From a candidate division WWE3 bacterium RIFOXYB1_FULL_43_24 (GTDB taxonomy: Bacteria; Patescibacteriota; WWE3; UBA101185; UBA10185): DNA of 64,000 nucleotides. The DNA lies in the NCBI GenBank assembly GCA_001773135.1, contig MEVX01000003.1, positions 172-64,171 on the forward strand, read 5' to 3'. Of the stretch, positions 11 through 48,823 are shown piece after piece (position 1 is the stretch's first letter; every line of letters starts with the position of its first letter). Both the position numbers and the translations under genes were made by a program. Below the pieces are notes generated by a model. That model was given only the letters and a program-made list of their open reading frames with translations, did not search any database and was not told the origin of the DNA.

Positions 11-1156
11 TTGGATCTGGAAACTTTCGGTAAGTATGCCCTGTTATCCACGCTTCTTCTTACTATTTCTAAAATCGTGGATTTCGGCGCAAATTCGGTT
101 TACGTTGCAAGATCTATAAAGGAACAAAATAGCAGCCTTTCCAACACACTCTTCACGTTAAAAGTAATTCAATTTTTAGTCTCGGTTCCTATTTCGTTAA
201 TCAGCTTAAAGTTATTAAATATTTTTGACGGGACAATTGCCACGTTGTTTATACTCGGAATTCTTGCCTACACGATGAACTACCTTTTCTATGCTTACTT
301 TCAACGCGCAGAAAAATATGCCGGGATGGTTCTTTTAAATACAGTCCCTCAGTTGATTAAAGGTGTTTTTGCTTTTCTATTTTTCGCGGCTACTGTAACA
401 CCCAGCCTTCACCTAGCTTTTGGAATTTTTTCGCTGTCTATTTTCGCCGGAGTAGTTTTATATTTCTTTTTACCCGCGGAGAACAAAAAGTTTATTTTCG
501 ATTTCCGCGGAGTCCGTGAACTTTTTAAGGAATCTTCACCGGCAGGTATTTCACAGATAGTTTATGAAAGCTGGGGGACCCTTAACAACGCGATCGCAAA
601 ATTTACAAAGGGTTTCGGCGACGTAGGAATACTATCGTTAGCAAACAAAATCTCGAATCTATTTTCCCTGGCATCACTTTCTATTTTTGCTGTTCTTTTG
701 CCGAAAAATGCCACACGCAAACTGACCGGAAAAAAATATGATTATCAGGAAACCGCACTTATAGCGGGTGGAATTATTGCCTTGGCGGTTGTGGCAATAG
801 CAGGTTCCGAGCTTTTTATTACAACCATATTCGGGGAGAAGTTTTCAGGGTCGGTAAAGCTCCTGGATATTTTAATTCTCGCCGCGGCAGTTTCGGCCAT
901 TCACACTTTCATAGAGAATCTTTTCTTCGTTGAGAGTAAGACCGGGTACATTATCGCCGCAACTGTCATAAAACTTTCTACGTACGGATTAACCGCCTTA
1001 ATTTTAGTACCGAAATTATCTTTATATGGAATTGCCTGGTCCAACCTAGTCTCTGCTATAGCGGGGCTAATAACGGCGCTCTATTTTATCTCCCGCTTTA
1101 AGGATTTACCACATCAGGAGCTGCAACCTGAGCATCATATTTCTTCTGAGATATAA
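11..1156 (+). CDS. MOP-superfamily polysaccharide biosynthesis protein / Wzx-like flippase, possibly 5'-partial
   Basis: The translation is multi-TM and hydrophobic with a typical flippase C-terminus (ALYFISRFK). The reading frame is open back to base 2, so the true start may lie upstream of the window. 381 aa is short for a 12-TM flippase. Confidence 0.5.
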   Translation: MDLETFGKYALLSTLLLTISKIVDFGANSVYVARSIKEQNSSLSNTLFTLKVIQFLVSVPISLISLKLLNIFDGTIATLFILGILAYTMNYLFYAYFQRAEKYAGMVLLNTVPQLIKGVFAFLFFAATVTPSLHLAFGIFSLSIFAGVVLYFFLPAENKKFIFDFRGVRELFKESSPAGISQIVYESWGTLNNAIAKFTKGFGDVGILSLANKISNLFSLASLSIFAVLLPKNATRKLTGKKYDYQETALIAGGIIALAVVAIAGSELFITTIFGEKFSGSVKLLDILILAAAVSAIHTFIENLFFVESKTGYIIAATVIKLSTYGLTALILVPKLSLYGIAWSNLVSAIAGLITALYFISRFKDLPHQELQPEHHISSEI

Positions 1157-3959
1157 AGTACCAAAGTACCCAGTCACCTCGCTCCTCAACAACAACCGGA
1201 TTGTAATTAAATCCGGCGACATTCTCGCTAAATCTTCCCTTTTTTGTAAGGAGAATAGTAGGCTTCTCGTACACAGGTATAGGTACGCGGTCGATCCTAT
1301 CCGCCCTAAAGTCCAGTATCTCAAACGGACCGTCGGTATAGTACACCGCAAGAGGAATGTCCATGCGGTCGATGTAAATTTTGGCATCTGTACCGAAGGT
1401 TTTATCCTTTAATACCAAAAGTTCGGCTTCAGCCCCCGTAAGATCTGACGTGTAGACCATGTCGCGGTAATAAAAAAGATACGCCAAAGATACAGCCACT
1501 ATTAAAAAGACGGCCGAGAGCTTGAACCAGAGCTTATCAAATTTCCTGAACCGTCCCATAAAATATCTAAGAAAACGGTCGATAAAAGAACCGACTATCA
1601 AAGCAAGTGGGGGATACAGCGGAATTACATACCACACAAGTTTGGATTTGGCGGTAGAGAAGAATAAAAATACAAACAAAGCCCAGATAAGTAAAAATGC
1701 ATAAACCCTTCTTTTTTTGAATACTTTATAAATTGCCGCGGGAAAGGCAGCTAATAAAACAATAAACCAGAGACGCATGCTGACCTTCAAAACTATCAGG
1801 TACCAGTAAAAAGGTCTTCCTTTATCTTCAATGGCTGTGGTAGCTCTATCCCAAACATGATAGCCTAGGTATTGGTTCAAAAATGCTATACCGAACGTTT
1901 TGAGCGTATAAAGATGCCACGGCAAAGCTATAACAGCCCAGCCTAATAACATAAATAAAAACGGTTTAAGTGCTTTAACCGACAACTTCGTCTGTTTTGT
2001 TAATAAAAGGTACAGCTCGCACAAAATGAGCACCGGAAATGGAATAAGCCCCACAACACCTTTTGTCATTACCGCAAACCCGGCAAACATCCCCGGGAAC
2101 AGCCACAAAAAAGTCTTTTTCTTTCCCCTTACAAAAATGTAGGAAAGGAGGGAAGCCGAGATGAAAAAAGTTACGGTCACATCCGTCATAGCAGCGCGTG
2201 AATAATATAAGTATTGGGTGGTTGTTAACAGTACTAGCGCGGATAAAAAGCCGGCTGTTTTGTTAAACATTTTTTTGCCGGCGAAATAAACCATCATCAC
2301 TATTAGAAATCCCATAATTGCGCTCGGGAACCTCGCGGCCAAAGGAATCACACCCATCACCGACATAAATCCGGACATCATCCACATGTATAAAGGAGGT
2401 TTTTCGTACCACACAGACGGGGGTCTCCATTCCTGAACAAGATACTCACCTGAAGTAACCATGTTCTTGGCAATTTTGGCATAAATTGCTTCGTCATAAG
2501 GAATTAGGTGATTTTTCCCAAGTCCCTGAAAGATGAGTACGCCTGCTAAAATACCCAAAACCAAAGGAACTATTTTCTCCGATCTGAAAAAGTATGAAAA
2601 GACGATACTTCTACCGTACTTTTCATAAACGGTGCCCGCACCCCACGCGGCAATAAAAGAAAATATTATCCAAAAAAATTCCGAATTATAAGAATAAAAA
2701 ATTCCCGCTGTGAGCCATCCGATAATTGTTGAAAAAAATACAGCACTAATTAAAAATTCTTTCTTTTTTTGTAATTTCAAAGCTCCATATAAAAGTGCGG
2801 CGAGCATGGCAAAAGCAAATACGGTAAATGTCGTTAATCCTAAGATACCAGTCTCTGCTATCAGCTCACCCCAGATTGTGTGAGCAGGAACTCTTGTGTT
2901 TAAAGCGGCGGGATCACGGCTAAAGTACGTAGGAGCTATTTTCGTGCTACTAAAATGTTCGAAAAATGACCCGTACCCTCCCCCGATCAAAGGGTACTCC
3001 TCAAATATCTGTGTTGCTCCGGTCAAAAGCATGAAGTGCGAGTCAAACGAATCCATTCTGTAATGAAAATATTGCTTAATGCGCGCTCTAAAAGGACTTG
3101 ATTTTATGCTGTATTCCCTTAAAAAGGGTACTGAGATCACGGCAAGAGCTACAAATAGATACAAAACGCCTTTTGACCCGATCTTCCTGAAAAGAAGCGT
3201 GGAGATGAATACTAAAAACGTAACTCCCGCCATAATCCAGGCTGTGCGGCTGTTAGTAAGTAAAAGCGCCGCAAGCATTGAGATAAACATCAGAACATCA
3301 ACTGCCCTACCTTTTAAGCTTTTTCCGGTTATTATTAAAACGCCTAACAAAGGTAACAAGGCTGACAGTAGCGCCCCGTAATGATTCACGTCCCAAAAAG
3401 TCGAACCGACCCGGGGCAAGTTTCCCGGAATATTCCACAACGCCCCGATTATTACGCCTTTAGTTTGATACAACCAAAACTGAAACCATCCGAACAACGT
3501 AAGCGTGAACGCCGTGTAAATATAAAAGCGGAGATATTTTACTATTTGGTGAGCATTCTTCTTGTACGTAAAGTAAACCAGCAAAAAAGCAGCTACAGAA
3601 GTCGTAAAAAATCCCAGCAAAAATATAGAGGATTGAATATTTTTCGAATTTATTAACGATATTAAACGCACAATCCATAACAGTACGAGAGAAACCACAA
3701 TCGGATCTTTTAGTTTTTCGAAAAGTGCGGGAAAATTTCTTTCTTTAATTAACCACATTACGGCACGCGTCAAAACCGCGGCAAGAAGTGCGAGCATAAA
3801 AGCTCGGATGGGCATCAAGTCCCATCTATAAAAGCTAAAAAGTTCTTTGTGAAGAAGGACGGAAAGTAAAATAAGAATATACACCGCAAAATTTAGGTTA
3901 CGGAGTATTAGTATGTACGACAGGATGCAAATTGTTGCTATTACTACGATTTCTGCCAT
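1098..3959 (-). CDS. Fusion membrane protein with an O-antigen-ligase (Wzy_C)-like domain and an ArnT/PMT-like GT-C glycosyltransferase domain
   Basis: 953 aa. The N-terminal half is polytopic and carries LLTNSRTAWIMAGVTFLVF, which resembles the Wzy_C/WaaL signature. The middle carries YDEAIYAKIAKNMVTSGEYLVQEW...WYEKPPLYMW, which parallels the ArnT N-terminal DE..Y..E...EKP motif. The C-terminal ~120 aa is soluble. Confidence 0.6.
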   Translation of the reverse strand: MAEIVVIATICILSYILILRNLNFAVYILILLSVLLHKELFSFYRWDLMPIRAFMLALLAAVLTRAVMWLIKERNFPALFEKLKDPIVVSLVLLWIVRLISLINSKNIQSSIFLLGFFTTSVAAFLLVYFTYKKNAHQIVKYLRFYIYTAFTLTLFGWFQFWLYQTKGVIIGALWNIPGNLPRVGSTFWDVNHYGALLSALLPLLGVLIITGKSLKGRAVDVLMFISMLAALLLTNSRTAWIMAGVTFLVFISTLLFRKIGSKGVLYLFVALAVISVPFLREYSIKSSPFRARIKQYFHYRMDSFDSHFMLLTGATQIFEEYPLIGGGYGSFFEHFSSTKIAPTYFSRDPAALNTRVPAHTIWGELIAETGILGLTTFTVFAFAMLAALLYGALKLQKKKEFLISAVFFSTIIGWLTAGIFYSYNSEFFWIIFSFIAAWGAGTVYEKYGRSIVFSYFFRSEKIVPLVLGILAGVLIFQGLGKNHLIPYDEAIYAKIAKNMVTSGEYLVQEWRPPSVWYEKPPLYMWMMSGFMSVMGVIPLAARFPSAIMGFLIVMMVYFAGKKMFNKTAGFLSALVLLTTTQYLYYSRAAMTDVTVTFFISASLLSYIFVRGKKKTFLWLFPGMFAGFAVMTKGVVGLIPFPVLILCELYLLLTKQTKLSVKALKPFLFMLLGWAVIALPWHLYTLKTFGIAFLNQYLGYHVWDRATTAIEDKGRPFYWYLIVLKVSMRLWFIVLLAAFPAAIYKVFKKRRVYAFLLIWALFVFLFFSTAKSKLVWYVIPLYPPLALIVGSFIDRFLRYFMGRFRKFDKLWFKLSAVFLIVAVSLAYLFYYRDMVYTSDLTGAEAELLVLKDKTFGTDAKIYIDRMDIPLAVYYTDGPFEILDFRADRIDRVPIPVYEKPTILLTKKGRFSENVAGFNYNPVVVEERGDWVLWYFISQKKYDAQVAAPDVVNP

Positions 3960-5092
3960 TTAGTTAGAACTTCCTGATAAACCTCAAGTGTTTTAGCTGC
4001 AGCTTTTTCCCAAGTATATTCCTTCCTTAACTCGTCGGCAATTTGAGGTCTCGGGGCTTTAAGCTGGGTTTTTATTGCATCGGCAATCGAGTCGACGTTT
4101 CCCGGGTCGCAATAAGAAGCATGGTCTTTAAGGTATTCGCGGGCTCTTTCACCTGAGGCCACGGCGTTTGCTCCGCAAAAGAGGGCTTCCAGACTGGTCA
4201 GGCCGGTTGTTTCGAACCAGCTTGCGCTAACCCCAACTTTAGCGTTTCTATAATAATCCGGCATCTCCTGGTAAGGAACTTTCTCTACGTGATGAATCCA
4301 CGGGCTCATAGCTTTTTTCTCATTAAACATTCTGCCGTATTCAAAGTGTTTTAATCCGGTCGAAACACCTATGAGAACTAACTGCAGATCTTCACCCACT
4401 TCACTGCGCAACTTTTCAACAGCAGAAATTATATTCAACTGATTTTTTCTGGGCTCTATACGTCCGACACAGATAATATAATCTTTCAAATTAAGGGGGT
4501 TCGTTTCGTCAGTCCCGGCGCCCTGTTCAATAAAGTTTCTGCTTACGCCGTTCGGAACTTTTACAGCGTCTATCTTTACACCGAATGTTTTTTCCAAATC
4601 TTTTGTCTCCAGGTCCGTCTGTACCAAAACCTTTTCCGACATTTCTAAAACTTCTTTTTGCATTTTTTGAAACCCGTGCGTAATGCTCACAAGCGTAGGT
4701 TTAATTTTTTTAGGGTCGGTTAATGATCTGTAAACATTTTTAAAAGTGTCGCGATGGAACTGGTTGCTGAAAAGAACTTTGGAAAGTCTTCGGAAGTCGA
4801 ACACGTACTCGTCATCAAATCTCTTCACCTCTTCTATGCTGTGATGTATGGGAGATAAAATTATGGGTTTTGCTGCGTCGTGTGCTTTCCGGGCGTATAA
4901 ATAGGTTTCGGGCGTCCAGTCCAGTTGAAATATATGGATGACATCGTAATTTTGAGGGATAAAATCCTCATCCGTCCTGATTTCAACATCGGCGCCCAGA
5001 GCTCTTAATTCACGGGCGGTGTTCTCTATCTGTACTTTGTCCCCGCCACCGTGTTCCATCAAGTGGTATCTCCCGAGCATTAATATTTTCAT
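3944..5092 (-). CDS. Glycosyltransferase family 4 (GT-B, GT1-domain)
   Basis: Translation is MKILMLGRYHLMEHGGGDKVQIENTARELRALGADVEI. It has the typical GT4 N-terminus and a C-terminal GT1 domain. It overlaps the downstream gene by 4 bp. Confidence 0.7.
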   Translation of the reverse strand: MKILMLGRYHLMEHGGGDKVQIENTARELRALGADVEIRTDEDFIPQNYDVIHIFQLDWTPETYLYARKAHDAAKPIILSPIHHSIEEVKRFDDEYVFDFRRLSKVLFSNQFHRDTFKNVYRSLTDPKKIKPTLVSITHGFQKMQKEVLEMSEKVLVQTDLETKDLEKTFGVKIDAVKVPNGVSRNFIEQGAGTDETNPLNLKDYIICVGRIEPRKNQLNIISAVEKLRSEVGEDLQLVLIGVSTGLKHFEYGRMFNEKKAMSPWIHHVEKVPYQEMPDYYRNAKVGVSASWFETTGLTSLEALFCGANAVASGERAREYLKDHASYCDPGNVDSIADAIKTQLKAPRPQIADELRKEYTWEKAAAKTLEVYQEVLTKWQKS

Positions 5093-6237
5093 TTTTTCTT
5101 TAGTAGCCTTTCGTAAAGAGAGACATAACTATTTGTAAAAGCTTTTATCGTGTAAAGTTCTGTGACTCTTTGCTTACCTTGCAGATGAGGAATGTTTTCG
5201 TTATTAACATACTTTTCATAAGCTTCTATCATTTTTTCGGCGAGGTCTGACGAGTCGCCTGCGCGAAAATATGTCACGGTGTCTCCCGCAACTTCTTTTA
5301 GTACCTCAAGGTCAGAGCATATAACAGGGAGTTCCGAATACATTGCCTCGATTAAGACTAGCCCGAAACCTTCGGCCAGTGTCGGGAACACAAAAAAGTC
5401 AAATGCCGAATAATACTTCACTAAATCCTCAGGAGGAAATTCCCCGGTAAAAATAACTTTATCCGCTATTCCTTTTGTGGCTGCTAGTTTCCTTATCTCA
5501 TCTTCGGACTCGCCACCTCCGGCGATAAACAGCATGAAGTCTTTAGAATGATACATGTCGGTGCCTAAGAATTTTTTGTACGCGTCTAAAAGAATATCGT
5601 GACCCTTTTCTCTGGAAATCCTACCCAAATTTCCGAATACGAAAGCGTTTTTATTTATTCCGTATCTTTTTCTGATCTCTTCTTCGTAGTCTGTTCTGGT
5701 GATTTGAGAAATAGTGAGTTTAGTTATGTCCAGACCGTTCGGGATAACAACAATCTTGTCTTTTTTTATACCCTCTTTTATTTTGACTTTCTTTTTTGAC
5801 TCCGTCAGGGCAATCTCCGCGTCGGAAAAACGATTAACAATAAAACTATAGAACAAAGAGTCTATTTTCCGTCTGGTCGGGCTTATTTTCCATTCTGAGA
5901 TAGGTGTGTGGACGTGTGTTATTTTGACCGGAGTGTGAGCGTTTCTGGCCGCAGCAAGAGCATTAGCTGCTGCCTTTAGTTCGTGTGCGTGAATTACATC
6001 AATTTTATTATCTACCAAAAAGGTGGTCAGCTCTGAGATGTAAGGAGCATCAAAATCAGAGGATATACTTTTTCTTGTTACTTTCGCTCCGGCTTCTTCA
6101 TAAATATCCGCAGGTTTTCCGACAGGGCACCAAACATAAACGTCGTGCCCCTCCCCCAACATTCCCTTAATTAAGTCCAGAACGTGTTGTTCCATCCCTC
6201 CCTGTTTAGATGAATTGTGTGAGTAAAGTATTTTCAT
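5089..6237 (-). CDS. Glycosyltransferase family 4
   Basis: Translation is MKILYSHNSSKQGGMEQHVLDLIKGMLGEGHDVYVW, with the GT1 domain FVFPTLAEGFGLVLIEAM (EX7E-like). Confidence 0.75.
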   Translation of the reverse strand: MKILYSHNSSKQGGMEQHVLDLIKGMLGEGHDVYVWCPVGKPADIYEEAGAKVTRKSISSDFDAPYISELTTFLVDNKIDVIHAHELKAAANALAAARNAHTPVKITHVHTPISEWKISPTRRKIDSLFYSFIVNRFSDAEIALTESKKKVKIKEGIKKDKIVVIPNGLDITKLTISQITRTDYEEEIRKRYGINKNAFVFGNLGRISREKGHDILLDAYKKFLGTDMYHSKDFMLFIAGGGESEDEIRKLAATKGIADKVIFTGEFPPEDLVKYYSAFDFFVFPTLAEGFGLVLIEAMYSELPVICSDLEVLKEVAGDTVTYFRAGDSSDLAEKMIEAYEKYVNNENIPHLQGKQRVTELYTIKAFTNSYVSLYERLLKKK

Positions 6238-6238
6238 T

Positions 6239-7456
6239 TCACTTTTTAATAAGATCGCCGATTATTCTCAACATTCTCTCAACTTTTCCGTCCCAATCGT
6301 TACTCTTTGCTACTTTTTGTCTGGCGGCTCTTTTTTCCGCATCATCTTCTTCTAAAGCTTTTCTCACGAACTGAGAAAACTCATTATAACTTTTTGCAAT
6401 GTAACAAACATCTGCGAACGGAGCGTACGCCGGAAGATCGGTAACAATTGTGGGTAAACCTGCCGCCAACCCTTCATGAAATTTTACAGGAAAACATCCC
6501 CCAACAGTATAGTCATTAAGTCTGTAAGGTATTATGGTGGCGTCGAAAGCTGCCACATATTTATGTATCTCGGAAAATTGTTTGGTGCCGAGGAAGTAAA
6601 GATTTGGTAATCCGCCTAGCCCCAATTCCTCAAGAGACCCCTCCCTATCTTTTAGTGCAATGGGCCCTATGATAACGAATGAGTATTTCGGGTAGTCAGT
6701 CACGATCTTTTTCATAAGATCTTTATCAAACTTGTAATCATCAACTGCCCCGTAAAAACCAACGATGGGGTGCGGAACTGATTTTATATCTTCGGGAAAA
6801 ACTTTTATTTTTTCTTTTATTCCGAAAAACTTAGGGTAATCACCGACGTTGGGGGTGAAATAAACATTAGAATTAAATTTCTTAAGCTTCTCCACCAACC
6901 CCGGAGCCGTTGAAAAAACTACATTTGCTCTCATTGCGAGATTCTGTTCTTTTTTGTTGATAGCTTCTTTTTTCTCGGGAGTGTTGTATTTGGGGAATCC
7001 GGAATAATTATCAACGCAGTCGTAAACCAGAAAATCGTGCTCGATGTATTTTAAATAACTCTCAAGACCCGCGATTTCCACGTGATATACCCAAAGTATA
7101 GTTTCACGGTCGGGATTAAAAAAATTCTGAGTGACTTTTTGTATAGATTTGGCATGAAACTCCGCGTGCTTTTCGTGAACGGGGGAAAAATCCAAAGGTG
7201 AGTATACGACTACGTTTCCGGATCTTTGTTTTTTCGTGATAAATCTTGAAAGGTTCCATTTTCCCTGCAAAACCTGGCGTATAAACAAACGCCCGGTGTT
7301 AATAGGAGGATCAACGAACAACACATTATGCCCAAGCTTCTCCAGCCTTGTCATGACATGCTTTTTGTTCGTCCAGAGGGGATAATCCCATAGTTGGTTC
7401 GAAAGGCAGATTATGTTGTATTTTTCACCTTGCTGATGCATATCCGAATTCCGCAC
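6239..7456 (-). CDS. Glycosyltransferase, GT1-domain (TuaH-like)
   Basis: N-terminus IICLSNQLWDYPLW. The C-terminus FPVKFHEGLAAGLPTIVTD resembles the GT1 nucleotide-sugar binding region. Confidence 0.5.
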   Translation of the reverse strand: MRNSDMHQQGEKYNIICLSNQLWDYPLWTNKKHVMTRLEKLGHNVLFVDPPINTGRLFIRQVLQGKWNLSRFITKKQRSGNVVVYSPLDFSPVHEKHAEFHAKSIQKVTQNFFNPDRETILWVYHVEIAGLESYLKYIEHDFLVYDCVDNYSGFPKYNTPEKKEAINKKEQNLAMRANVVFSTAPGLVEKLKKFNSNVYFTPNVGDYPKFFGIKEKIKVFPEDIKSVPHPIVGFYGAVDDYKFDKDLMKKIVTDYPKYSFVIIGPIALKDREGSLEELGLGGLPNLYFLGTKQFSEIHKYVAAFDATIIPYRLNDYTVGGCFPVKFHEGLAAGLPTIVTDLPAYAPFADVCYIAKSYNEFSQFVRKALEEDDAEKRAARQKVAKSNDWDGKVERMLRIIGDLIKK

Positions 7457-7525: not shown

Positions 7526-8899
7526 CTATAAACACTTCGGGCACGCTGAAGCCATCAAACCAAGCTTAACCAGCACCCGTCTTATATCAAATAAAAATTC
7601 AGAGTCTTTTATAGACCAAAGCCACGAGGTGTTTTCGTAGCCTAGGTCGTAGGCGGCGTGCCATATCCCGTCAAAGAAAAGTAATCCGTAGATTTCGATG
7701 AACACAGACAGCCCAAATAGAATAAAAAATAGTTTTTTAGTTTTTTCAAAAGCCGCGGAATTAATGTAGGGAACCATTAAAAAAATAAAATAAGGTAGGA
7801 CGTCGCTCGACATTCTATACCCGAACGACCAGCCTCCGTACCAATGCTTCCACAAACTTATAACGAGGGTATGCAGAAGGATTATCAGAGCGAACACTTT
7901 ATATAACCCGATCTTTTCAATTTTTCCTTTGACTGCCAGGTAGAAACCGTAGATTGAAAAAAACAATACAGGTGAAAAAATTAAAATTCCTTTACTGGGT
8001 GAAAGCCACACGCCCAAAAAACTTATAGGAAAAGGCGAGAGCCACGAACGGAAAAGCTGGTCCGAGTATCCCTGGTTCTGAATGTCATAGTAATAAACCG
8101 AGTTGTACCAAAGGAAAAATGATGCCGCGACAATCAAACCAGAAGTAAAGGTTATGGCAGATTTAAATAAGTTATCACTTTTATGAATATTAGTGAAAAT
8201 TAGGTATAACTCTATCAATAAAATGGGTAAGCCGGCGGTCGGTCTGGAAAGAAAAGCGAACCCGAAAAACAAACCGGACAATAGCATATTCATATACGCG
8301 GAGTGGTCTTTTTGATGTTTAAGAAAAAAGTAGATACCTAAAATTGACAGGAGCTGCAGCGCACCGTGCTGCCACATCGCTTGCGAAACCATCGCAAAGT
8401 TTACCGTGGCAAATAAGTATACCGCCGTAAGAATTGTAGATTTCTTTTCTTCCAGTCCGAATCCTTCGCGGAGAGTTTTAAACAGAAACAACCCCGCCAA
8501 CGCCATTATCAAGGCACCTGACAAATGATTTAACAATGCCAGGTTGTCCCATGTAATAGGCATTCCCAGGGCGAGTGGCAGTGCAAAAACCGGAACTGAC
8601 AAAATAGGAGTAATGATGGGGAATGCCGTAATATAACGATCCCCTACTTTTCTTAAATAAAACGGGGTCAGGTCTTTTTGAAAATCTTTGTCGTCGGGGT
8701 GCGGATACCTGTCTCTCATCATCACATAGTATTTGTCGAGATATAACGTGCGGTCTTTAATAATTGAGACGGTTGTGAAAATAGAAGGCACTGTATCTTC
8801 ACTTTGAATTATGAGCGAATTAACATTGCGAAAGCCGGGGATTATAAAAGGAACAAAAAATACCGCGAGGGAAATTAAAAATATTTTTAACTGAGACAT
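7526..8899 (-). CDS. Polytopic integral membrane protein, hypothetical (possible GT-C-like)
   Basis: 457 aa and very hydrophobic, with many predicted TM helices. No recognisable catalytic motif. Confidence 0.4.
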   Translation of the reverse strand: MSQLKIFLISLAVFFVPFIIPGFRNVNSLIIQSEDTVPSIFTTVSIIKDRTLYLDKYYVMMRDRYPHPDDKDFQKDLTPFYLRKVGDRYITAFPIITPILSVPVFALPLALGMPITWDNLALLNHLSGALIMALAGLFLFKTLREGFGLEEKKSTILTAVYLFATVNFAMVSQAMWQHGALQLLSILGIYFFLKHQKDHSAYMNMLLSGLFFGFAFLSRPTAGLPILLIELYLIFTNIHKSDNLFKSAITFTSGLIVAASFFLWYNSVYYYDIQNQGYSDQLFRSWLSPFPISFLGVWLSPSKGILIFSPVLFFSIYGFYLAVKGKIEKIGLYKVFALIILLHTLVISLWKHWYGGWSFGYRMSSDVLPYFIFLMVPYINSAAFEKTKKLFFILFGLSVFIEIYGLLFFDGIWHAAYDLGYENTSWLWSIKDSEFLFDIRRVLVKLGLMASACPKCL

Positions 8900-13197: not shown

Positions 13198-14781
13198 TTA
13201 ATTTATTTTGTATAAGGTGGCGTCAGAAAAAACCTGAACCTCTTCAAGCATATTTAAAGTACTAATCTGTTCTGAATATTTCTCGGGTTCATAAAATAGG
13301 ATATGTGTAACTCCCAATTCTTTTCCTGTATCTATCATACCGGGCTCAAATATTTTTAACGTCAGCTCCTCGGCAGATATATTTGTAAACCTGTAACCTC
13401 TTACATTCATCAAACACTGCTTATGATCGGGCAGCCAAAAAAGGCTCTCGTTTGATTTCGAGTAGGGATAAACAAGGTACTTTATTGTCATCGGTTGTTG
13501 GGCACCCATATAAAGGTAAGGGTCGGGAACCTTGTCGTATTTTGTTATTTTGAAAGGAACAAAGGTTTCTGCGAGTGTAACGACTAGCAGAATAGGCATG
13601 AAATATTTGAAAAACTTTGGCTTGTTAACATGAATAACATTTATAATCTCTGCCATTATCAAAAGCATGAGAAGTAAAATCATGGGGCTAAACCTCGCGG
13701 TTACACGGAACATGGGGAAAAATGTTGCGATAAGGTGCCCCGGTGTGTATATTTTCCAACCGGCTATCGTAAAAAATGGCGGCATTGTGAATGAGATAAG
13801 AAGAATTGTGGTGAGAAGCAGTACGTTAACTTTTTGTTTGATTTCGGTATCCAATTTCTTATATCCGTATATGAGACACCCTGCAAATGTGATTAAAAAA
13901 AGGTAACCGAAAAAAGCCGCCGAGTGCTCTGCAGGAAAGTAGTCATCTGCCAAGAAATACCCTGTAGATTCAATTTTTGCGGTGATATTTTTAGAAAATT
14001 CACCATAAATTGGATTTTTAGGGGAGGGGGTGAAGAAGTACCACGGACGGAGTGAGAATGTAACGAAGTCCTCGTACGGTCTCGCATAATACCCTATGCT
14101 AGGAACATTTTCCTCAGTCGTAAAAAAAGCTGCACGTATATATGGAAAAATAGACATAACAATAATGGCAATTGCGGATACTAGACACACTAGAAGATTT
14201 CTTAACTTTACAAGACCTAACCTATCCTTAAACTTTAAAAACAAAAAATAACTAACAATTACTGCCAAACAAGTCACGAGCATTACAAAACCCAAATAAT
14301 TAGAAATTAAAGTGCTTAGAATTAAAAGGGCAGTCAGCGCAACGTAATTGCGGAAATACCGCCTGGAATCGAATAAGATAGCTAACAAGGAAAGAATAAA
14401 AAGTACAAATAACCATACCTGCATAAGCTCCTGGTGTATTCCAAACTTTATCCAAAAATAACTGCAAGATGAAAAGATGGCGGCGTATATATACCAATAT
14501 CTATATTTTTTAAATAGTATATAACTCGATAAAAGAGTTAAAAAGATAGTAATAAGGGCACTTAGGGGCAAGAAGATCCAATCTAACAAAAACAACATAT
14601 ACTTAGTTATGAGGAGAAAAACCGGTTGACTGCTCGTCATTGGGTTGCCTACACTATTTATTACCGACACATATTGCTTGCATAAATCGACCAAACGATA
14701 CTGATCAACACCTAAAAGGTGTATTGTGTTTTTCCATATGTACAGAGTTGTTTGATCTTGTAATCCATTTATGACGTACAT
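13198..14781 (-). CDS. Polytopic integral membrane protein (possible Wzy-like polymerase or GT-C)
   Basis: 527 aa with more than 10 hydrophobic segments. No soluble catalytic motif recognised. Confidence 0.4.
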   Translation of the reverse strand: MYVINGLQDQTTLYIWKNTIHLLGVDQYRLVDLCKQYVSVINSVGNPMTSSQPVFLLITKYMLFLLDWIFLPLSALITIFLTLLSSYILFKKYRYWYIYAAIFSSCSYFWIKFGIHQELMQVWLFVLFILSLLAILFDSRRYFRNYVALTALLILSTLISNYLGFVMLVTCLAVIVSYFLFLKFKDRLGLVKLRNLLVCLVSAIAIIVMSIFPYIRAAFFTTEENVPSIGYYARPYEDFVTFSLRPWYFFTPSPKNPIYGEFSKNITAKIESTGYFLADDYFPAEHSAAFFGYLFLITFAGCLIYGYKKLDTEIKQKVNVLLLTTILLISFTMPPFFTIAGWKIYTPGHLIATFFPMFRVTARFSPMILLLMLLIMAEIINVIHVNKPKFFKYFMPILLVVTLAETFVPFKITKYDKVPDPYLYMGAQQPMTIKYLVYPYSKSNESLFWLPDHKQCLMNVRGYRFTNISAEELTLKIFEPGMIDTGKELGVTHILFYEPEKYSEQISTLNMLEEVQVFSDATLYKIN

Positions 14782-14799: not shown

Positions 14800-15162
14800 T
14801 CAATACTCTTTGCGAACCAACAATATTGCAGTGCCGAAAAAGAAAAGAAACAGAGCCCAGGTGGATAATTTTTCAGCTAATACCTTAAGATCGAGTAATA
14901 AAACCAGCGGTATAAGACACAAACCAACTATAGCGGCGGTATATATAACTTCTACTCTAAACTTAAACCGTAACCACAAAATAAACCAAAACGTAAAATA
15001 CAGCCAAAAAACAAAATTAATAATATAGCCAGAAAACAGCAGATCACCGATAACTATGACAACAAAACACGTTAACAACCAAAAATCTATTTTTGATTTC
15101 CTATATAATTTATAAAGGCTCTTAGGTAAATTACTTACTAATTTAGTTATGCTTTTTTTCAT
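14800..15162 (-). CDS. Small membrane protein, hypothetical
   Basis: 120 aa with 3-4 hydrophobic helices. It overlaps the start of the upstream 1207-aa gene by 20 bp. Confidence 0.3.
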   Translation of the reverse strand: MKKSITKLVSNLPKSLYKLYRKSKIDFWLLTCFVVIVIGDLLFSGYIINFVFWLYFTFWFILWLRFKFRVEVIYTAAIVGLCLIPLVLLLDLKVLAEKLSTWALFLFFFGTAILLVRKEY

Positions 15163-18100
15163 GTTTCCGAATTAGTACCGTTACGATAAACAGTATAGCA
15201 GTTAAAATTAATGTGACAGTAGCGAGTGAGCAAACGTAAAAAATTCTCTGAGGCCAAAATTCTATTATCAACGTAAAATCCTCTCTTCCGACTACCGAGG
15301 GGTCAACAACCCATGCATTTGCAAAACCATTAGCGATGTAGTGAGTTTTTGGAAACATTGCCTGCTTACTCCAAGTATCTATTGTGTTTTCATCAAATAA
15401 TACATCATTTGATGATCTCTCCACGATATCACCGTTGAAATAACTTTTCGAACCGAACTGATGTCGTTCTGACTGATTAAATATATCGAAAAAAGCTTTA
15501 GATATCTTAGTCAAGGTGCTATACAAAACACCTGACTGATTTTTTCTATCCATGCCCTCTGCAGAGTATAACCGCCACCCACTGTGGAAATTCTCTTGAA
15601 ATACCAGATCAAACGTGCTGGTAGCTCCAGAAACATTTACTACATATTTCGTGGGGTTTACCCGCGTATAAGAGATTTTGGGAACAGCTCTATTAATACA
15701 CCCACCTTCCTGGATATAAGCAACGGGCGGTATCGACCTTTTTTTAACACTTAGATTTTTTATCAAAACATCAGATTTGTGTTCTTTTGCCTCAACAGGG
15801 GTTTTAATAAAGACATATCCATTTTCAGACTCCGAACTAGAAGTGAATGTTTTCTGAAAGTGAGAATAACAGGGCTGAGATTGGTCGACACAGTATGCGA
15901 ACCCAAAAATCTCCTCATTAAATATCTTTCGCCTTTGAACAGGAAACTCTCCTTTCCCTATCAAATCCCAATCGATAACACCTGTACCCCTATCAACTAA
16001 CGAGTAGTCTAGTGTATCTTCATATACTCCAACTTCTACGTTAACCATACTAGATAAATAATCAAAAGAGACAGTATACTCGGTACTAGTTTCCCAATCA
16101 TTTACCTGTTGAAATTTCGCTATGTCATTCACATCTAGCTGCGAGGTTTTAATTAGTTCTCTATTATCACTTTGAGTGAAGTCTGCACACTTCAATTCTA
16201 TCGTTGAAGTCGTGTCGTAAATGTCTGTTCTTAACTTACGCCAAGAACCCGATTCTTCCGTGAATAATTCATAGTTACCTTCCTTCGGTATATTGAACAC
16301 ATACTCACAACCCGCCTGCTCAGATACCCCGCCTATCCATTGTTTTATCTCCTCAAAAAGACTTATAGAATCAGATACTTCGGTGTACGGAATCTCACTT
16401 CTAGAACTCAGTAAATTTATAGATACGCCTGCATATGCGTAGAGCTTTTTCACCAGTCCCCAGTATGTATCGGGACTTATTTTTGGATTAAGATTGACTG
16501 AAGCTGAATGCTCATCGAGGCTAGTGCGAAGTGTGTTAAACGCAAATCTAATACCATTATTGAACCTAATAATGTTTTTAACACGATCGTCTCCTGTAAG
16601 ATTGTACTCCAAAATTTCTTGAATCCTTTTAGAGGAGTTCCATATTTCGTAATCTGTACGCACCAGCTTGTCGGGAGCAGAAACTAGTCTTATTTTTTCA
16701 CTGAGTAGCATAATGTCATGTCTAAAAGTTCTGGGCTGTTTCTCTACCTTCGGCCACACCCACCCTTTATTCCAAGTCAGGGATTCGAGATTAATTTCTG
16801 GTTCTTCATCGTTAATTTGACCGTATGATATTACCGGGCAATAGTTATCTTGTGAAGAATAAACCTCAGCTTGGTTAATTTTGTAAACCGTCCTTACATC
16901 GGGAAAATATACATCTCTCATATAAACAACGTCTTCATTTCTTCCAGTGCCATAAACAATGTTTTTTGGTATGTAAAATTTGGGCAGATACTCATCCTCA
17001 TTTACTGTAAAAACACAAAGTGCCGGTTGATTCAGCAATTTAACATAAAGCTCATTTCTAACGCTGCTGTCTGTATCCTTGTTAAGAACCTTTTCCAAGT
17101 ATGTCTGATCAAACTTACCGTATTTATGGGAACATTCCCCTAGGATTCGTTTCGTGTCACTTTCAATATTTTCAGGATTGCTATATCTAAACTCAAAATC
17201 CGATTGATAAAGAATATGCAGCACGTTGAAAAAACCAATGTTATCAACCTTATTCCGATACAATGCGTTGACAACTGCGTCGCCTTCGGTAGATAAAGTG
17301 TCTGTTTTCCTCAAAACCTGCAGGTTAGTTGCTATTTCTGGGTAAGGCCAAACCATATTTGCACCTTGCAACCAGTTGTAACTGTTCCCATAACCTCTAG
17401 ACGGAAGCAGCAAATAGTGCTCTTTTGTGGAGGCCTCGCTGATAAATTCTTCCCAATATTCCGGAACCTTTACTACGCTACCCCACTGACCTGCATTCCA
17501 CCTATCATAGTTTAATAAAGCTTTTACATCTAAAACTGGGGCAACATATACAAAGACTAAAAGGGCCGTAATCAAAAATACAAGAGTTTTTCTTTTCCTA
17601 AACCTAAGAAGCAGATATTGTACGGACAGCGCGAAAATGAGCGTAAACCCTAAAGAGTACAGTGCCATAAACTTAGTAAAAGGCTCTCTATAAGGCTTGA
17701 GGAAAACGGTATTGTTATAAAACAAATCATAAAGAAAACCAAAGGGGGCCTTTGTACCCAACACAAGAAACATACCTATTAGCGGAATCAAATACACCAG
17801 TACTGAGAGGTTTGCTCTTATGAGACGTAACTTTTTAATTGATTTAAAAAGGGGGTACGCTAAAAAACCCATAAATACAACTGAGTAGGAAGCTATTATT
17901 ACTAGGGGGAGCTGATAATACGAACTTGCAAGGTAATAAGGCTGCCCATTATGCCCGGAGTACCAAGACCACGAGCCCAGCATTCTAAAAAAATCGAAAT
18001 AATATCCGGACCCAAGTGAACTAAACATCTGCAGCCCGTTGTTGGTAGCTCTAAACGATACAAATAAGGAATCTACTACAAGGTATATCCAATATGAATT

Positions 18101-24053: not shown

Positions 24054-24278
24054 ATGCATGAATGGGTACGTTTGCGGAAGAAACAGGATATGTCAGTAAT
24101 ACAAGCTCTTCTTGACGGGATGGAAGGAAGGGATTCGGAAGGATACATAATAGACTTCTGTACCAAAAATGTCCTACCCGGCTCTGAAAGGGACACTATG
24201 AGATTTAAAGAGGTACTGACGTCCCGTGGCATTCCGTTTGGACTTAAAGCAATAAAAATGGATGAGGAGGAAAAATGA
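24054..24278 (+). CDS. Small protein P2 (~74 aa), hypothetical. Distant paralog of P7
   Basis: The ATG has GAAGAGGTG upstream. The ORF track extends it to a TTG at 24036. The stop overlaps the P3 start (ATGA). It shares ..LL...EG...E...I.....M.RFK..L with P7. Confidence 0.5.
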   Translation: MHEWVRLRKKQDMSVIQALLDGMEGRDSEGYIIDFCTKNVLPGSERDTMRFKEVLTSRGIPFGLKAIKMDEEEK

Positions 24279-24493
24279 TCGTATTCTTTGACAACCAAGA
24301 GGGCCTGACCAAAGCCATAACGGTTGGGAACAAAGTGGGAATCTGCGATTGCGAAGACTTCAGGGTCGACGCGGCTCAAAACGCAATAGTGTTTGATGAC
24401 ACTTGCGAGGTGGAAATAACCGAGTTCATTTCTGCCCTGGAAAAGAATAACAACGGATCGGAGGAACTTATATACTTTCGAGCCAGATACTAG
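24275..24493 (+). CDS. Small protein P3 (72 aa), hypothetical. Paralog of P5
   Basis: A GAGGAGG SD lies inside the P2 3' end. It aligns with P5 (M..F....L..A..G..V....VDA..N.I.FD.....FISA.....E.IYF). Confidence 0.6.
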   Translation: MIVFFDNQEGLTKAITVGNKVGICDCEDFRVDAAQNAIVFDDTCEVEITEFISALEKNNNGSEELIYFRARY

Positions 24494-24499
24494 CCCGAT

Positions 24500-24539
24500 A
24501 AGCCCGTTGTTCCAACAAAAAACAACGGGCTTTCTTTTT
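24500..24539 (+). terminator. Rho-independent terminator T1
   Basis: The stem is aagcccgttgtt / aacaacgggctt with a 9-nt loop, followed by tctttttc. It is nearly identical to T2. Confidence 0.7.
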
Positions 24540-24552
24540 CGAGGAGGGACAA

Positions 24553-24798
24553 ATGTACAACTTTTTTTTCTTTACGGAAGAAGCGTTTTCTCTAGCATTG
24601 GAGAAACTTCGTAAGAGCGATAGGAATTGGTTTTACAGCTACAAAAATCTTCTTATCAGTTTTTACGAGGGTTGCGACGCCGATTTCCTGGTAGGAGAAC
24701 TTGTTTTACTGGGAGTTTCCGGCGGGGCATACAGACTGGAGCGCCCGGAAAGGAAGAAGGGAGGAACCGAATTAAAAACTAGGGGACGTGTTAAGTAA
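24553..24798 (+). CDS. Small protein P4 (81 aa), hypothetical. Paralog of P1
   Basis: A GAGGAGGG SD is present. It carries the conserved ELVLLGV...YR block and has a basic C-terminal tail. Confidence 0.6.
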   Translation: MYNFFFFTEEAFSLALEKLRKSDRNWFYSYKNLLISFYEGCDADFLVGELVLLGVSGGAYRLERPERKKGGTELKTRGRVK

Positions 24799-24847
24799 TA
24801 CATATCTTTTTCAGACATGTAGCCGGAATAGAAAGGCAAGGGAGGAT

Positions 24848-25072: not shown

Positions 25073-25097
25073 GTTAAATTTTTATTAATGAAACCTT

Positions 25098-25138
25098 AAG
25101 CCCGTTGTTTCAACAAAACACAACGGGCTTTCTTTTTT
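25098..25138 (+). terminator. Rho-independent terminator T2, a duplicate of T1
   Basis: The stem is aagcccgttgt / acaacgggctt followed by tcttttttcg. It matches T1 at almost every base. Confidence 0.7.
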
Positions 25139-25180
25139 CGGAAGGCAGTCGTGCTTGTTTAAAAGAAGGGTTTTTCAAAG

Positions 25181-46946: not shown

Positions 46947-47720
46947 TTACTTGGCAGTGTTGTAAAGGCCCATAATATCGTTCAGCCTTATCTTCAAAAC
47001 GTCAAGTCCCATTTTAACGGAATCACGGACGGGGCTTACCCGCGTGGTCTTAACGTGAGTCCAGACTATCGGAACTTGTTTGACATTATACCCCAGTTTC
47101 TTGGCTAAGTACAAAACCTCTACATCCCATGCTCCGGTGTATGGTTTGTCCAATTCTTTGGTGTTTTTACCGTAAACTTTCATTCTTCCGAAGATATCCT
47201 TGGCCACAGAACCCTTGAAAAGCTTAAATCCGCACTGGCTGTCTCTGATACCGGGCAAAGCAACAATTTGTATCATCAGGTTGAAAACCCTACCCATCGC
47301 GTGACGGTAAAAAGGTTCTCCCACCCTTTCGGCTCCTATTCCTTCTCTGGATGCGATTGCGATATCAAAGTTTTGATCGGTAATCCAAATAGCCAGCTTC
47401 TTTAGTTCCGTCATGGGAGCTGAAAGATCGGCGTCCGCCATATAAATAAGATCACCAACTGCCGTGTTCATTCCGGTCAAAACTGCAAAACCTTTTCCTT
47501 TATGTGGATTTCTTATCACTCTGACTTCGGGATTTTCCACCGCATACTCTTCCACTATAGAAGCAGTAGCGTCCTTGCTACCATCGTCGACTACGATAAT
47601 CTCAAAAGTGTCTGTAAAAGTTTTCATAAAATTAACGGCTTGTGTTAGTGATGAAGATATTTTGTCCGCCTCGTTGTATGCGGGTATAACTATTGAGTAA
47701 TTCATTTTTTGCCCTTCCAA
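46947..47720 (-). CDS. GT2 polyprenol-phosphate glycosyltransferase (DPM1/GtrB-like)
   Basis: It carries YSIVIPAYNEADKISSSLTQAVN...FEIIVVDDGSKDAT and MADADLS. Confidence 0.75.
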   Translation of the reverse strand: MEGQKMNYSIVIPAYNEADKISSSLTQAVNFMKTFTDTFEIIVVDDGSKDATASIVEEYAVENPEVRVIRNPHKGKGFAVLTGMNTAVGDLIYMADADLSAPMTELKKLAIWITDQNFDIAIASREGIGAERVGEPFYRHAMGRVFNLMIQIVALPGIRDSQCGFKLFKGSVAKDIFGRMKVYGKNTKELDKPYTGAWDVEVLYLAKKLGYNVKQVPIVWTHVKTTRVSPVRDSVKMGLDVLKIRLNDIMGLYNTAK

Positions 47721-48823
47721 ATTATTTTACTATAAACAGTAAAATTCCATATCAGCCCGAATATTATACCAATTAAAAACGCCGTGTTTGAAACAAGTGC
47801 GGTATCACCGAATGTGCTGACCGCAAATCCTACAAGTTTTGAACGGACGAATATAGGTATGAACGAAGAAGTAATGTAAATAACAAACCCTAAAACTTTC
47901 TCTTTCACTCCCTCAATCTTTCGTTCGCCGAAAGACCAGTAGTTATTTAACAGGAACGTCACCATCATTGCAACAAACCCTGATGCCAGTGCAGCATTGC
48001 GGGAACTTAAAATACTGATTCTTAAAATATTAAATAGACTGGCGTCAACTATAAATCCTGCAACACCTACGAAAAGAAATTTGACGAAGCTTTTATTTTC
48101 GTTGTACCTGAGCAGGACGACAACTCTTAGCGAGTCCCTTAAATTGTTTTTTTCCATTTTGGAATCACCGCGGTCACGTAGTCCGAATTTTATCGGAACT
48201 TCCTTTATTTTTGCTCCCAATCTGTGCATTTTGAACAGGAGGTCAATCTTATAAGCGAATCCCTGAGAAAGTATTTTGTCCAATGACAGCCTGTCGACAA
48301 ATCCTTTAACACGTGAGGCTTTAAAACCGGAAGTGAAATCGTTTACATTAAAAATACCTAAAACTAGTTTTGAAAAAATGTTTCCGCCCACACTGAAAAA
48401 TTTCCTTTTAAAGGCCCATTCTTCCGGTATGCTTCCGCCCTTTGTAAATCTGGAACCTATTACGTAGTCATAACCATTATCTATTTCGTCGATAAGTCTC
48501 ACCATATCTTTTGGGTCGTGCTGGAAGTCTGCGTCCATCTCAACTATCACGTCGGCTTTCAGTTCGTTCATTGCTTCTCTGAAACCGTAAACGTACGCTG
48601 CACCTAAACCGGCCTTAACTTTTTCCATTAGTAAATGAACGTTCAGATTACTTTTCATCTTTTCACGGACTATGTTGGCTGTACCGTCGGGAGAATTTCC
48701 TTCAACAACCAGGATATGAAAATCGTGTTGAGGTCTTTTCAGAAACTCCTGCTGAAGAACATCTGTGAGCCTTCCTATATTTTCCGCCTCATTATAAGTA
48801 GGTATAACAATAACTATTTTCAT
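47702..48823 (-). CDS. GT2 polyprenol-phosphate glycosyltransferase fused to a C-terminal GtrA-like membrane domain
   Basis: The N-terminus is MKIVIVIPTYNEAENIGRL...VEMDADFQHDP. The C-terminus has 4 TM helices (FLFVGVAGFIVDASLFN...) typical of GtrA. Confidence 0.7.
   Translation of the reverse strand: MKIVIVIPTYNEAENIGRLTDVLQQEFLKRPQHDFHILVVEGNSPDGTANIVREKMKSNLNVHLLMEKVKAGLGAAYVYGFREAMNELKADVIVEMDADFQHDPKDMVRLIDEIDNGYDYVIGSRFTKGGSIPEEWAFKRKFFSVGGNIFSKLVLGIFNVNDFTSGFKASRVKGFVDRLSLDKILSQGFAYKIDLLFKMHRLGAKIKEVPIKFGLRDRGDSKMEKNNLRDSLRVVVLLRYNENKSFVKFLFVGVAGFIVDASLFNILRISILSSRNAALASGFVAMMVTFLLNNYWSFGERKIEGVKEKVLGFVIYITSSFIPIFVRSKLVGFAVSTFGDTALVSNTAFLIGIIFGLIWNFTVYSKIIWKGKK

Follow-up and report, generated by a model that had tools for sequence, protein, structure and literature searches.

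A conserved WWE3 fusion protein that joins a WaaL/Wzy_C-type module to an ArnT-like GT39 module

WaaL-family proteins (glycosyltransferase family GT121) are widespread in bacteria without lipopolysaccharide (LPS), and what they do in such bacteria is recognised as an open question (PMC10920833). WadA from Brucella and Mesorhizobium is a bimodular O-antigen ligase, in which a GT25 domain is joined to a GT121 domain, and was reported as the first bifunctional ligase (PMC9938171, PMC10920833). It is the one characterised precedent for a ligase-family domain fused to another glycosyltransferase. The CAZy classification paper introducing GT121 mentions the GT25 fusion only, and our literature searches found no description of a fusion between Wzy_C/GT121-like and GT39/PMT_2 domains or of ligase homologues from WWE3. 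Here we describe such a fusion, encoded in a 64,000-nucleotide stretch of DNA (the window) from candidate division WWE3 bacterium RIFOXYB1_FULL_43_24 (contig MEVX01000003.1, positions 172 to 64,171). We propose, with a probability of roughly 0.6, that the product is a bimodular terminal enzyme at the membrane's outer face in a conserved Wzx-dependent pathway, and that both of its modules act on one acceptor.

The gene is an uninterrupted open reading frame (ORF) of 953 codons with an ATG start. The preliminary description of the window, made from the sequence alone, had claimed a single 953-amino-acid (aa) protein at this position and had quoted three of its peptides. The ORF listing bears this out, and the peptides LLTNSRTAWIMAGVTFLVF, YDEAIYAKIAKNMVTSGEYLVQEW and WYEKPPLYMW were located at residues 232-250, 488-511 and 517-526, respectively. 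The gene and its parts are as follows.

1098..3959, minus strand: whole gene, 953-aa bimodular membrane glycosyltransferase; stop codon at 1098-1100 (ORF listing and homologues).
2616..3959, minus strand: N-terminal module, residues 1-448, WaaL/Wzy_C-type and GT-C_B-like, with about 12 transmembrane (TM) helices and a long outer loop at residues 285-361 (Pfam, AlphaFold2 [AF2] and Foldseek).
2826..3290, minus strand: Pfam Wzy_C match, residues 224-378 (47.1 bits).
2574..2615, minus strand: interdomain linker, residues 449-462, rich in lysine and arginine, predicted cytoplasmic (alignment and topology).
1443..2573, minus strand: GT39/ArnT-like GT-C_A transmembrane module, residues 463-839 (Pfam, PDB 5ezm and Foldseek).
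1101..1442, minus strand: C-terminal alpha/beta domain, residues 840-953, predicted extracytoplasmic as in ArnT (AF2 secondary structure and topology).

Both halves were detected significantly by hidden Markov models. Pfam Wzy_C (PF04932) matched with an E-value of 2.8e-12 and a score well above its gathering cut-off of 31.7 bits, PMT_2 matched residues 520-681 with 77.3 bits (cut-off 26.1, E = 2e-21) and PMT matched residues 515-691 with 56.1 bits (cut-off 22.7). When PDB sequences were searched, the ArnT entry 5ezm was found with an E-value of 2.5e-21 by the single sequence and 3e-39 by a profile of 33 family sequences. The best NCBIfam match was the ArnT equivalog (PRK13279) at residues 478-837, and its score was 98.2 bits against a cut-off of 567. 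Because of this low score, the C-half is, as far as sequence can tell, ArnT-like and no ArnT orthologue. The mean identity of the C-terminal alpha/beta domain within the family is 42%.

An AF2 model of the whole chain, built on the family alignment, had a mean predicted local distance difference test (pLDDT) score of 86.2 and a predicted TM-score (pTM) of 0.84. The high pTM suggests that the two modules pack together in a defined way. In a Foldseek search of the PDB with this model, the top match was ArnT (5f15; E = 5e-12, TMt 0.67) and the fourth match was the WaaL O-antigen ligase 7tpg_B (E = 1.1e-5, TMt 0.64, 458 columns); other GT-C_A enzymes (ALG9/12, PglB/STT3 and Pmt4) ranked between these two and lower. 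The predicted helices of the N-module number about 12, and a 77-residue loop (285-361) precedes the last three of them, as in WaaL. After the linker follows an ArnT-like bundle and then the C-terminal alpha/beta domain, so that the whole protein is predicted to have about 23-25 TM helices.

The topology could be judged from the loops of the model. The density of lysine plus arginine is 0.29 in the predicted inner loops and 0.10 in the outer loops, in line with the positive-inside rule. All 13 catalytic-candidate residues of the two modules lie on the predicted outer face (13/13), and the linker lies inside. In the model, therefore, both catalytic centres would be outward-facing and joined by a short cytoplasmic segment. 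The preliminary description had taken the N-half to be Wzy_C/WaaL-like, had seen a parallel to the N-terminal loop of ArnT and had placed both activities at the outer face. These views hold: the first is supported by Pfam, by the 7tpg_B match and by the R238 and H360 motifs described below, the second by sequence (5ezm) as well as by fold (5f15), and the third agrees with the predicted topology. The model that it had suggested as a check also matched both expected folds.

We considered whether the fusion could be an artefact, that is, two adjacent genes merged by a frameshift or by misassembly. The junction DNA is in frame, with neither a stop nor a shift. In an alignment with 33 homologues (47-90% identity), the junction region (residues ~446-465) varies in sequence and its length differs by only 1-2 residues; mean pairwise identities are 0.54 and 0.53 for the N- and C-modules and 0.24 for the linker. 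A search of 5.8 billion proteins gave 305 relatives, of which the best 120 are described here. Nearly all of these 120 are full length (a few are shorter, for example the 767-aa P0008), with 48-90% identity; all carry Wzy_C and PMT_2 and are labelled by source as WWE3 or Patescibacteria, and the named ones bear only the label 'glycosyltransferase family 39'. In a genome scan, the fusion was found in at least 80 species-representative genomes (41-90% identity); one of these is the closed genome (CP006914.1) of WWE3 bacterium RAAC2_WWE3_1, and two are from single cells. The fusion is the normal state of the gene in WWE3/Patescibacteria and no rarity there. A merged pair would be suggested by the split form that exists in a relative, described below, and by the fact that the gene is fragmented in two metagenome-assembled genomes (MAGs), so that indel errors do occur. 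However, the same in-frame junction with its nearly constant linker recurs in independent assemblies from many studies, in a closed genome and in single-cell genomes, and errors in MAGs break the gene and do not fuse it. Because of this recurrence, and because a split-gene orthologue pair exists, the fusion is real. An artefact, which the preliminary description had asked to be excluded, has almost no chance of being the explanation.

The two fragmented cases are consecutive same-strand fragments in BPJL01000002.1 (locus L021, 4 ORFs) and CAVXUZ010000005.1 (locus L071, 2 ORFs), which likely reflect indel errors or pseudogenisation.

Relatives of the N-half alone were sought among 1.84 billion representative proteins. 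This search gave 542 relatives, 71 of them at E <= 1e-30, and they fall into four size classes. The class of ~430-460 aa consists of standalone Wzy_C proteins. Members of the ~700-aa class (683-731 aa: P0156, P0158, P0162, P0165, P0166, P0170, P0172 and P0173) carry Wzy_C and an unrelated extension of 270-330 aa without a Pfam match; the 699-aa P0156 has a separate PMT_2 gene before it and a Wzx gene after it. The 842-874-aa class (P0163, P0169, P0174, P0178, P0184, P0189-P0191 and P0200) carries Wzy_C and a shorter, divergent PMT_2 half, and the 920-1070-aa class comprises the canonical Wzy_C and GT39 fusions. One standalone protein, P0141, was located on a metagenomic contig of 285 kb, where the gene order is GT4, Wzy_C (460 aa), a 55-nucleotide (nt) spacer, PMT/PMT_2 (497 aa), GT4, Wzy_C (428 aa) and Wzx. 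The 460-aa and 497-aa proteins of this contig, the split pair L084/L085, match the fusion N-half (35% identity, E = 1e-74, residues 3-432) and the C-half (35% identity, E = 2e-75, residues 460-913), respectively. Their two genes are adjacent, stand in the same order as the fusion halves and keep all signature motifs. Taken together, the fusion and the adjacent split orthologues are Rosetta-stone evidence, drawn from sequence comparison, that the putative ligase works together with a GT39-type transferase. In a neighbour-joining tree of the N-module, GT39-fused forms occur throughout, standalone forms are interspersed and the ~700-aa class forms its own clades; this tree is rough, midpoint-rooted and without support values, and some 'standalone' entries are possibly truncated genes. 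The pattern suggests an old partnership of the two modules with occasional fission. A different layout was seen in P0244 (913 aa, Logan assembly), where an N-terminal GT2 precedes Wzy_C at residues 664-818; this resembles the 'cytoplasmic glycosyltransferase plus ligase' layout of WadA, with GT2 in place of GT25.

The residues on which ligase activity depends are known from other systems. R215, R288 and H338 of E. coli WaaL correspond to R224, R298 and H349 of N. meningitidis PglL, and these residues are functionally required (PMC3643930); the CmWaaL counterparts are R191 (first Arg), R265 (second Arg) and H313 (His). The R215-type Arg binds the phosphate of undecaprenyl diphosphate (Und-PP) and the proposed role of the His is acceptor activation (PMC3643930, PMC10920833). 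Ligases have His at this catalytic position, whereas inverting polymerases and SEDS proteins have Glu or Asp (PMC10920833). The corresponding codons in the fusion gene, and the catalytic motif of its GT39 half, are given below.

3246..3248, minus strand: codon of R238 in LTNSR238TAW, the equivalent of E. coli WaaL R215 (invariance and motif comparison).
2880..2882, minus strand: codon of H360 in H360-T-x9-G371-xx-G374, the equivalent of E. coli WaaL H338, CmWaaL H313 and NmPglL H349 (invariance and spacing).
2490..2495, minus strand: codons of D489-E490, the catalytic 'DE' motif of GT-C enzymes, located in the first outer loop, opposite CmArnT D55/E56 (alignment to 5ezm).

The first-Arg motif is LTQTR215ATLL in E. 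coli WaaL and LTNSR238TAWI in the fusion, and the His motifs are H338NEIIEAGSLKGLMG and H360TIWGELIAETGILG, respectively. The spacing from Arg to His is 122 residues in the fusion and 123 in E. coli WaaL. This mapping was made by motif and spacing only, because Smith-Waterman alignment of the loop regions with E. coli WaaL was untrustworthy. The pattern H-[NSQT]-x9-G-xx-[GTY] occurs by chance in 1.2% of shuffled N-half sequences. R183, D190, N192, H193, R238, H308, H360, G371 and G374 are universal in fused, split and standalone relatives down to ~29% identity. Because H360 is invariant where inverting polymerases have Glu or Asp, the signature of the N-module would be of the ligase/O-oligosaccharyltransferase (O-OTase) type rather than of the polymerase type.

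The C-half retains every ArnT catalytic position examined. In a HMMER alignment to 5ezm, D489/E490, E519/K520, D593, R705 and Y777 stand opposite D55/E56, E84/K85, D158, R270 and Y345 of CmArnT (ArnT residue numbers; the PDB chain numbering is offset by three). These residues are invariant in the family, in distant 920-1070-aa fusions and in a split orthologue. This bears on the idea that one module is a degenerate, non-catalytic scaffold, for example that the GT39 half only binds the carrier lipid or the acceptor. In the 842-874-aa relatives, the DE motif appears to be missing its first Asp, and in the ~700-aa class the unrelated extension takes the place of the GT-C half, so that the partner of the ligase can degenerate or be swapped. 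However, all catalytic positions examined are invariant in both halves, in this protein and in all 920-1070-aa relatives, and the two halves are equally conserved (54% and 53%). We consider a degenerate module very improbable for this protein, while the GT-C half of some relatives may be non-canonical.

We infer that both modules are active and would act sequentially on one acceptor, and that the two activities would be functionally coupled. In the proposed pathway, a Bac_transf phosphoglycosyltransferase would prime undecaprenyl phosphate (Und-P), about 5-6 GT-B enzymes would extend the Und-PP-oligosaccharide and Wzx would flip the product. The ligase module of the fusion (WaaL/PglL type, GT121-like) would then move the Und-PP-linked glycan en bloc onto a hydroxyl acceptor, and the GT39 module would use a polyprenyl-monophosphate donor to place a single sugar on this acceptor as well. 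By analogy with WadA, we favour a 'prime-then-ligate' order, in which GT39 would install the acceptor sugar and the ligase would attach the oligosaccharide to that sugar; the reverse order, to ligate and then decorate, may apply instead. Candidate acceptors are Ser/Thr of surface proteins, a membrane glycolipid and a wall polymer. Bacteria of the candidate phyla radiation (CPR) are generally held to lack LPS. If this general view is right, the name 'O-antigen ligase' is not to be taken literally here, and lipid A-core is an improbable acceptor. The annotated window has no LPS core genes and no arn operon context.

Several observations weigh against this proposal. Whether the single protein or the profile of 33 sequences was used, sequence searches of the PDB matched ArnT only and no ligase, and hhalign of the family profile with the E. 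coli K-12 WaaL sequence gave a probability of 0.4 and no usable alignment, although a single-sequence template is weak. Because these searches gave no PDB ligase and no significant alignment with E. coli WaaL, the WaaL assignment is based on the Pfam match, the fold and the motifs. Within the motifs, H360 is followed by Thr where WaaL proteins have Asn, Ser or Gln, and the second Und-PP-binding Arg (Ec R288/Cm R265) was not mapped confidently: R291 and R301 are invariant in the close family only, and the other candidates are R183 and R356 (Lys or His in relatives). The rule that separates His from acidic residues comes from one comparative study and not from experiments in this clade. The predicted topology takes the helix at residues 523-535 as juxtamembrane by homology to ArnT, which is a post-hoc reassignment. 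On the side of the GT39 module, the first Asp of the DE motif seems often to be absent from the related 842-874-aa fusions, as described above, and the tightly conserved gene module around the fusion contains no polyprenyl-phosphate-sugar synthase; the nearest candidates in the window are ~36-45 kb away.

The gene neighbourhood was compared by our own ORF calling and BLASTP against the window proteins in 80 of the genomes with the fusion; the denominators below are genomes with enough flanking sequence. The neighbours of the fusion gene are as follows.

3944..5092, minus strand: GT4, immediate upstream neighbour (Pfam), in 54/55 genomes.
5089..6237, minus strand: GT4, second upstream gene (Pfam), in 41/43 genomes.
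6239..7456, minus strand: TuaH-like GT-B (Pfam; NCBIfam TuaH, 89 bits, below cut-off), in 40/43 genomes.
7526..8899, minus strand: second GT-C (PMT_2, LA_3751/3752-like; Pfam and NCBIfam), in 39/40 genomes.
11..1156, plus strand: convergent Wzx-type flippase (Polysacc_synt; Pfam match from profile position 31), at most 3 genes downstream in 51/58 genomes.
13198..14781, minus strand: 527-aa membrane protein, DUF6311-like, with a GT-C_A-type fold (AF2 and Foldseek), upstream of the fusion in 20/34 genomes.

The fusion gene comes last in its minus-strand operon. The end of the upstream GT4 gene, with its stop, reaches 16 nt into the fusion start (3944-3959); therefore, the two belong to the same operon, and the overlap suggests translational coupling. 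The 5' end of the Wzx gene is probably cut by the window edge. At the other end, its 3' end overlaps that of the fusion gene by 59 nt (1098-1156), and these genes do not overlap in locus L013. Further downstream, beyond the start of the window, the module continues in other genomes; its genes were identified on L013 by Pfam and NCBIfam. A Bac_transf phosphoglycosyltransferase of ~212 aa lies within 10 kb downstream of the fusion in 41/43 genomes, with two or three more GT4 genes between it and Wzx. Directly after it follows a DUF4012 protein of ~655 aa (37/43 genomes; L013 18302-20269) and then housekeeping genes. The DUF4012 protein has no PDB or NCBIfam match and may be a chain-length or export factor. 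Judged from its gene content, the conserved module is a complete Wzx-dependent pathway for a putative Und-PP-oligosaccharide.

The 527-aa neighbour was examined as the missing Wzy polymerase and was rejected, since its fold is GT-C_A-type and not Wzy-type (AF2 and Foldseek). It has no Pfam match itself, and some of its homologues carry DUF6311 (PF19830). Its AF2 model (pLDDT 88.5) matched DPY19, ArnT, AftD and STT3 in Foldseek, with TM-scores of only 0.3-0.5. The invariant residues D9, H116, E285/H286 and R359/R363 may mark its active site.

Because the 527-aa protein has a GT-C_A fold, the fusion N-module is the only Wzy_C-type catalyst in the module, and if a polymer is made, it must be this module that polymerises. 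This leads to another possible function of the fusion, in which the Wzy_C module would join Wzx-flipped repeats and the GT39 module would add side-chain sugars from an Und-P-sugar outside the cell, as the GT-C arm of a 'three-component' system like those known for the wall polymers of Gram-positive bacteria. The locus has the parts of a Wzx/Wzy pathway (phosphoglycosyltransferase, GT-B enzymes and Wzx), the Pfam family Wzy_C spans some polymerases besides ligases, and the window encodes a GT2-GtrA fusion and many GT-C genes, which are typical of extracytoplasmic decoration (PMC8035078). However, the best structural match of the N-half is WaaL, and the invariant H360 stands in a WaaL-type H-x10-G-xx-G motif where inverting polymerases have Glu or Asp (PMC10920833). 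Moreover, no Wzz or polysaccharide co-polymerase (PCP) type chain-length regulator was recognised in the module by Pfam or NCBIfam, though the function of DUF4012 is uncharacterised. We regard polymerisation with decoration as conceivable but rather unlikely.

The proposal of a ligase and a transferase that share an acceptor has a special case, in which that acceptor is specified as protein. The fusion would then be dedicated to protein O-glycosylation, as a PglL/WsaB-like O-OTase combined with a PMT-like O-mannosyltransferase that acts on Ser/Thr of secreted surface proteins such as pilins, S-layer proteins or adhesins while these emerge from the membrane. GT39 is the family of protein O-mannosyltransferases, and the C-half is recognised by Pfam PMT; the canonical WaaL acceptor would be gone if, as is generally held, CPR bacteria have no LPS; and the large glycan-assembly region described below argues for heavy investment in surface modification. 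O-OTases of the Wzy_C family also have the same catalytic Arg and His residues (PMC3643930). In contrast, the Pfam models PglL_A and Wzy_C_2 (PglL_B), which were built from proteobacterial PglL and may therefore miss a divergent O-OTase, gave no match at E <= 0.01. The GT39 half is nearer to ArnT than to Pmt1/2/4, both by its best NCBIfam match and by the length of the Foldseek alignment (~550 columns for ArnT and ~260 for the Pmt structures); no MIR family was among the Pfam matches of the fusion protein, and the comparison of loci found no obvious substrate protein conserved beside the fusion gene. Thus, we consider a dedicated protein O-glycosylation system doubtful.

A bolder idea is that the fusion represents a 'double GT-C' class not described before. 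A GT-C_A module with a lipid-phosphate monosaccharide as donor and a GT-C_B module with a lipid-diphosphate oligosaccharide as donor would be rigidly packed in one chain and would carry out two assembly steps in turn at the outer face, on an acceptor other than LPS; the most provocative candidates are surface proteins. In the protein version, Ser/Thr would first receive an O-linked priming sugar from the PMT-like half, and a preassembled oligosaccharide would then be ligated to this sugar by the WaaL-like half. We offer this as speculation and think that it is unlikely to be correct. If it were true, proteins (or glycolipids) would be glycosylated by a new route, and WaaL homologues in bacteria without LPS would receive their first functional assignment.

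The fusion module is part of a larger region. The first ~48.8 kb of the window (1-48823) form one glycan-assembly supercluster, which is followed by adk, secY, ribosomal-protein, tuf and fusA genes. Two of its genes may concern the donor of the GT39 module.

47702..48823, minus strand: GT2 and GtrA_DPMS_TM fusion, 373 aa (Pfam).
39770-40456: short GT2, candidate donor synthase (Pfam).

The GT2-GtrA protein is likely a candidate polyprenyl-phosphate-sugar synthase and putative flippase that would supply the donor for the GT-C enzymes of the cluster; we infer its link to the GT39 module. The supercluster also contains at least 9 GT4/GT1 genes, 7 GT2 genes, 3 S-adenosylmethionine (SAM)-dependent methyltransferase genes (one with a double domain), a B12/radical-SAM enzyme, a UDP-Glc/GDP-Man dehydrogenase, 3 Wzx-like flippases, 6 PMT_2 GT-C genes, of which three are in tandem at 31528-36177, and a DUF2079 membrane protein. 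The B12-binding radical-SAM enzyme (26515-28125, minus strand) lies among GT2 genes and may modify a sugar, for example by C-methylation; this enzyme and the adjacent GT2 pair are 50-73% identical to genes beside the fusion module in L071. A 1207-aa protein (15143-18766, minus strand), polytopic in its N-terminal membrane part and extracytoplasmic in a large C-terminal part, has no Pfam or NCBIfam match. Weak homologues of it (20-29% identity) were found upstream of the fusion in 11/34 genomes, and it may be a giant GT-C enzyme (AftD-like?) or a glycosylated substrate. The only plus-strand stretch inside the supercluster (24275-26426) contains tandem small ORFs of 72-102 aa, at least two of which look paralogous by eye (...VDA..N.I.FD...IYF...). 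An Rfam scan of the window, including this stretch, gave no match.

Fusion sequences have long been public, at least since the RAAC2_WWE3_1 genome, and have carried only the family 39 label. The fusion is lineage-wide and mechanistically suggestive, and it is not a categorically new system. Among known kinds of bifunctional ligase it would be the second, WadA being the first, and no other would have both sites on the outer face. For WaaL-family proteins in bacteria without LPS, the partnership with GT39 narrows the search for the acceptor to something that GT39 enzymes modify, and R238, H360 and D489/E490 are concrete targets for mutation. The fusion anchors a nearly universal, conserved surface-glycan locus of WWE3, which is likely relevant to the host attachment of these ultra-small episymbionts and to phage recognition. 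As a compact enzyme for two-step glycosylation at the outer face, it may also be of use in glycoengineering.

Finally, we compare the fusion with known systems. In WaaL (GT121, PDB 7TPG), the likeness extends to Wzy_C, the fold of ~12 TM helices, the long outer loop that precedes the last three helices, the Arg of LTxxR and the His of H-x10-G-xx-G. The fusion differs in that pairwise comparison detects no sequence similarity to E. coli WaaL, its second Arg is not clearly mapped, it is fused to GT39 and its host is probably a monoderm, for which a lipid A-core acceptor is not to be assumed. ArnT (PDB 5EZM/5F15), in the bacterial branch of the GT39/GT83-like PMT_2 family, is the best match of residues 463-953 in sequence and fold; the examined catalytic and carrier-lipid-binding positions are all conserved and both proteins have a C-terminal outer domain. 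However, the equivalog score is 98 against 567, and the fusion does not lie in an arn operon. Eukaryote-type PMTs have MIR domains in a large luminal loop, and the fusion protein has none. The O-OTases PglL, PilO and WsaB are likewise members of the Wzy_C superfamily, with the catalytic Arg and His in common (PMC3643930). Where LPS is absent, they are plausible as functional analogues, although no adjacent substrate gene was identified at the fusion locus. Wzy-type inverting polymerases (GT125-129, clan GT-C1) have Glu or Asp at the position of the ligase His and usually a chain-length regulator, whereas the fusion has His. In the multi-component systems of Gram-positive bacteria (a GT2 Und-P-sugar synthase, a GtrA-type flippase and a GT-C), a GT-C of the PMT_2 type modifies a polymer outside the membrane, with an Und-P-monosaccharide as its donor (PMC8035078, PMC11127046). 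The window likewise encodes a GT2-GtrA fusion and several PMT_2 genes, but the GT-C of the Gram-positive systems is a separate protein, unfused to an Und-PP-glycan ligase or polymerase.

WadA resembles the fusion in that one polypeptide contains a WaaL-family ligase module and a second glycosyltransferase of the same pathway. The extra glycosyltransferase of WadA adds the sugar that the ligase uses as an acceptor, and we propose the same logic for the fusion. The partner in WadA is a soluble, cytoplasmic GT-A-type GT25, which uses a nucleotide sugar, whereas the partner here is a polytopic GT-C_A enzyme (GT39), for which a lipid-phosphate sugar would be the donor. Because GT25 is cytoplasmic, the two sites of WadA are on opposite faces of the membrane, while those of the fusion are both predicted on the outer face. 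Moreover, the ligase module is C-terminal in WadA and N-terminal in the fusion, and the WadA acceptor, lipid A-core, is unlikely to exist in WWE3. Because the partner is GT39 and Pfam found no GT25 or GT-A domain in the protein, the fusion is not a WadA-type member; in domain architecture, it is a putative analogue of WadA.

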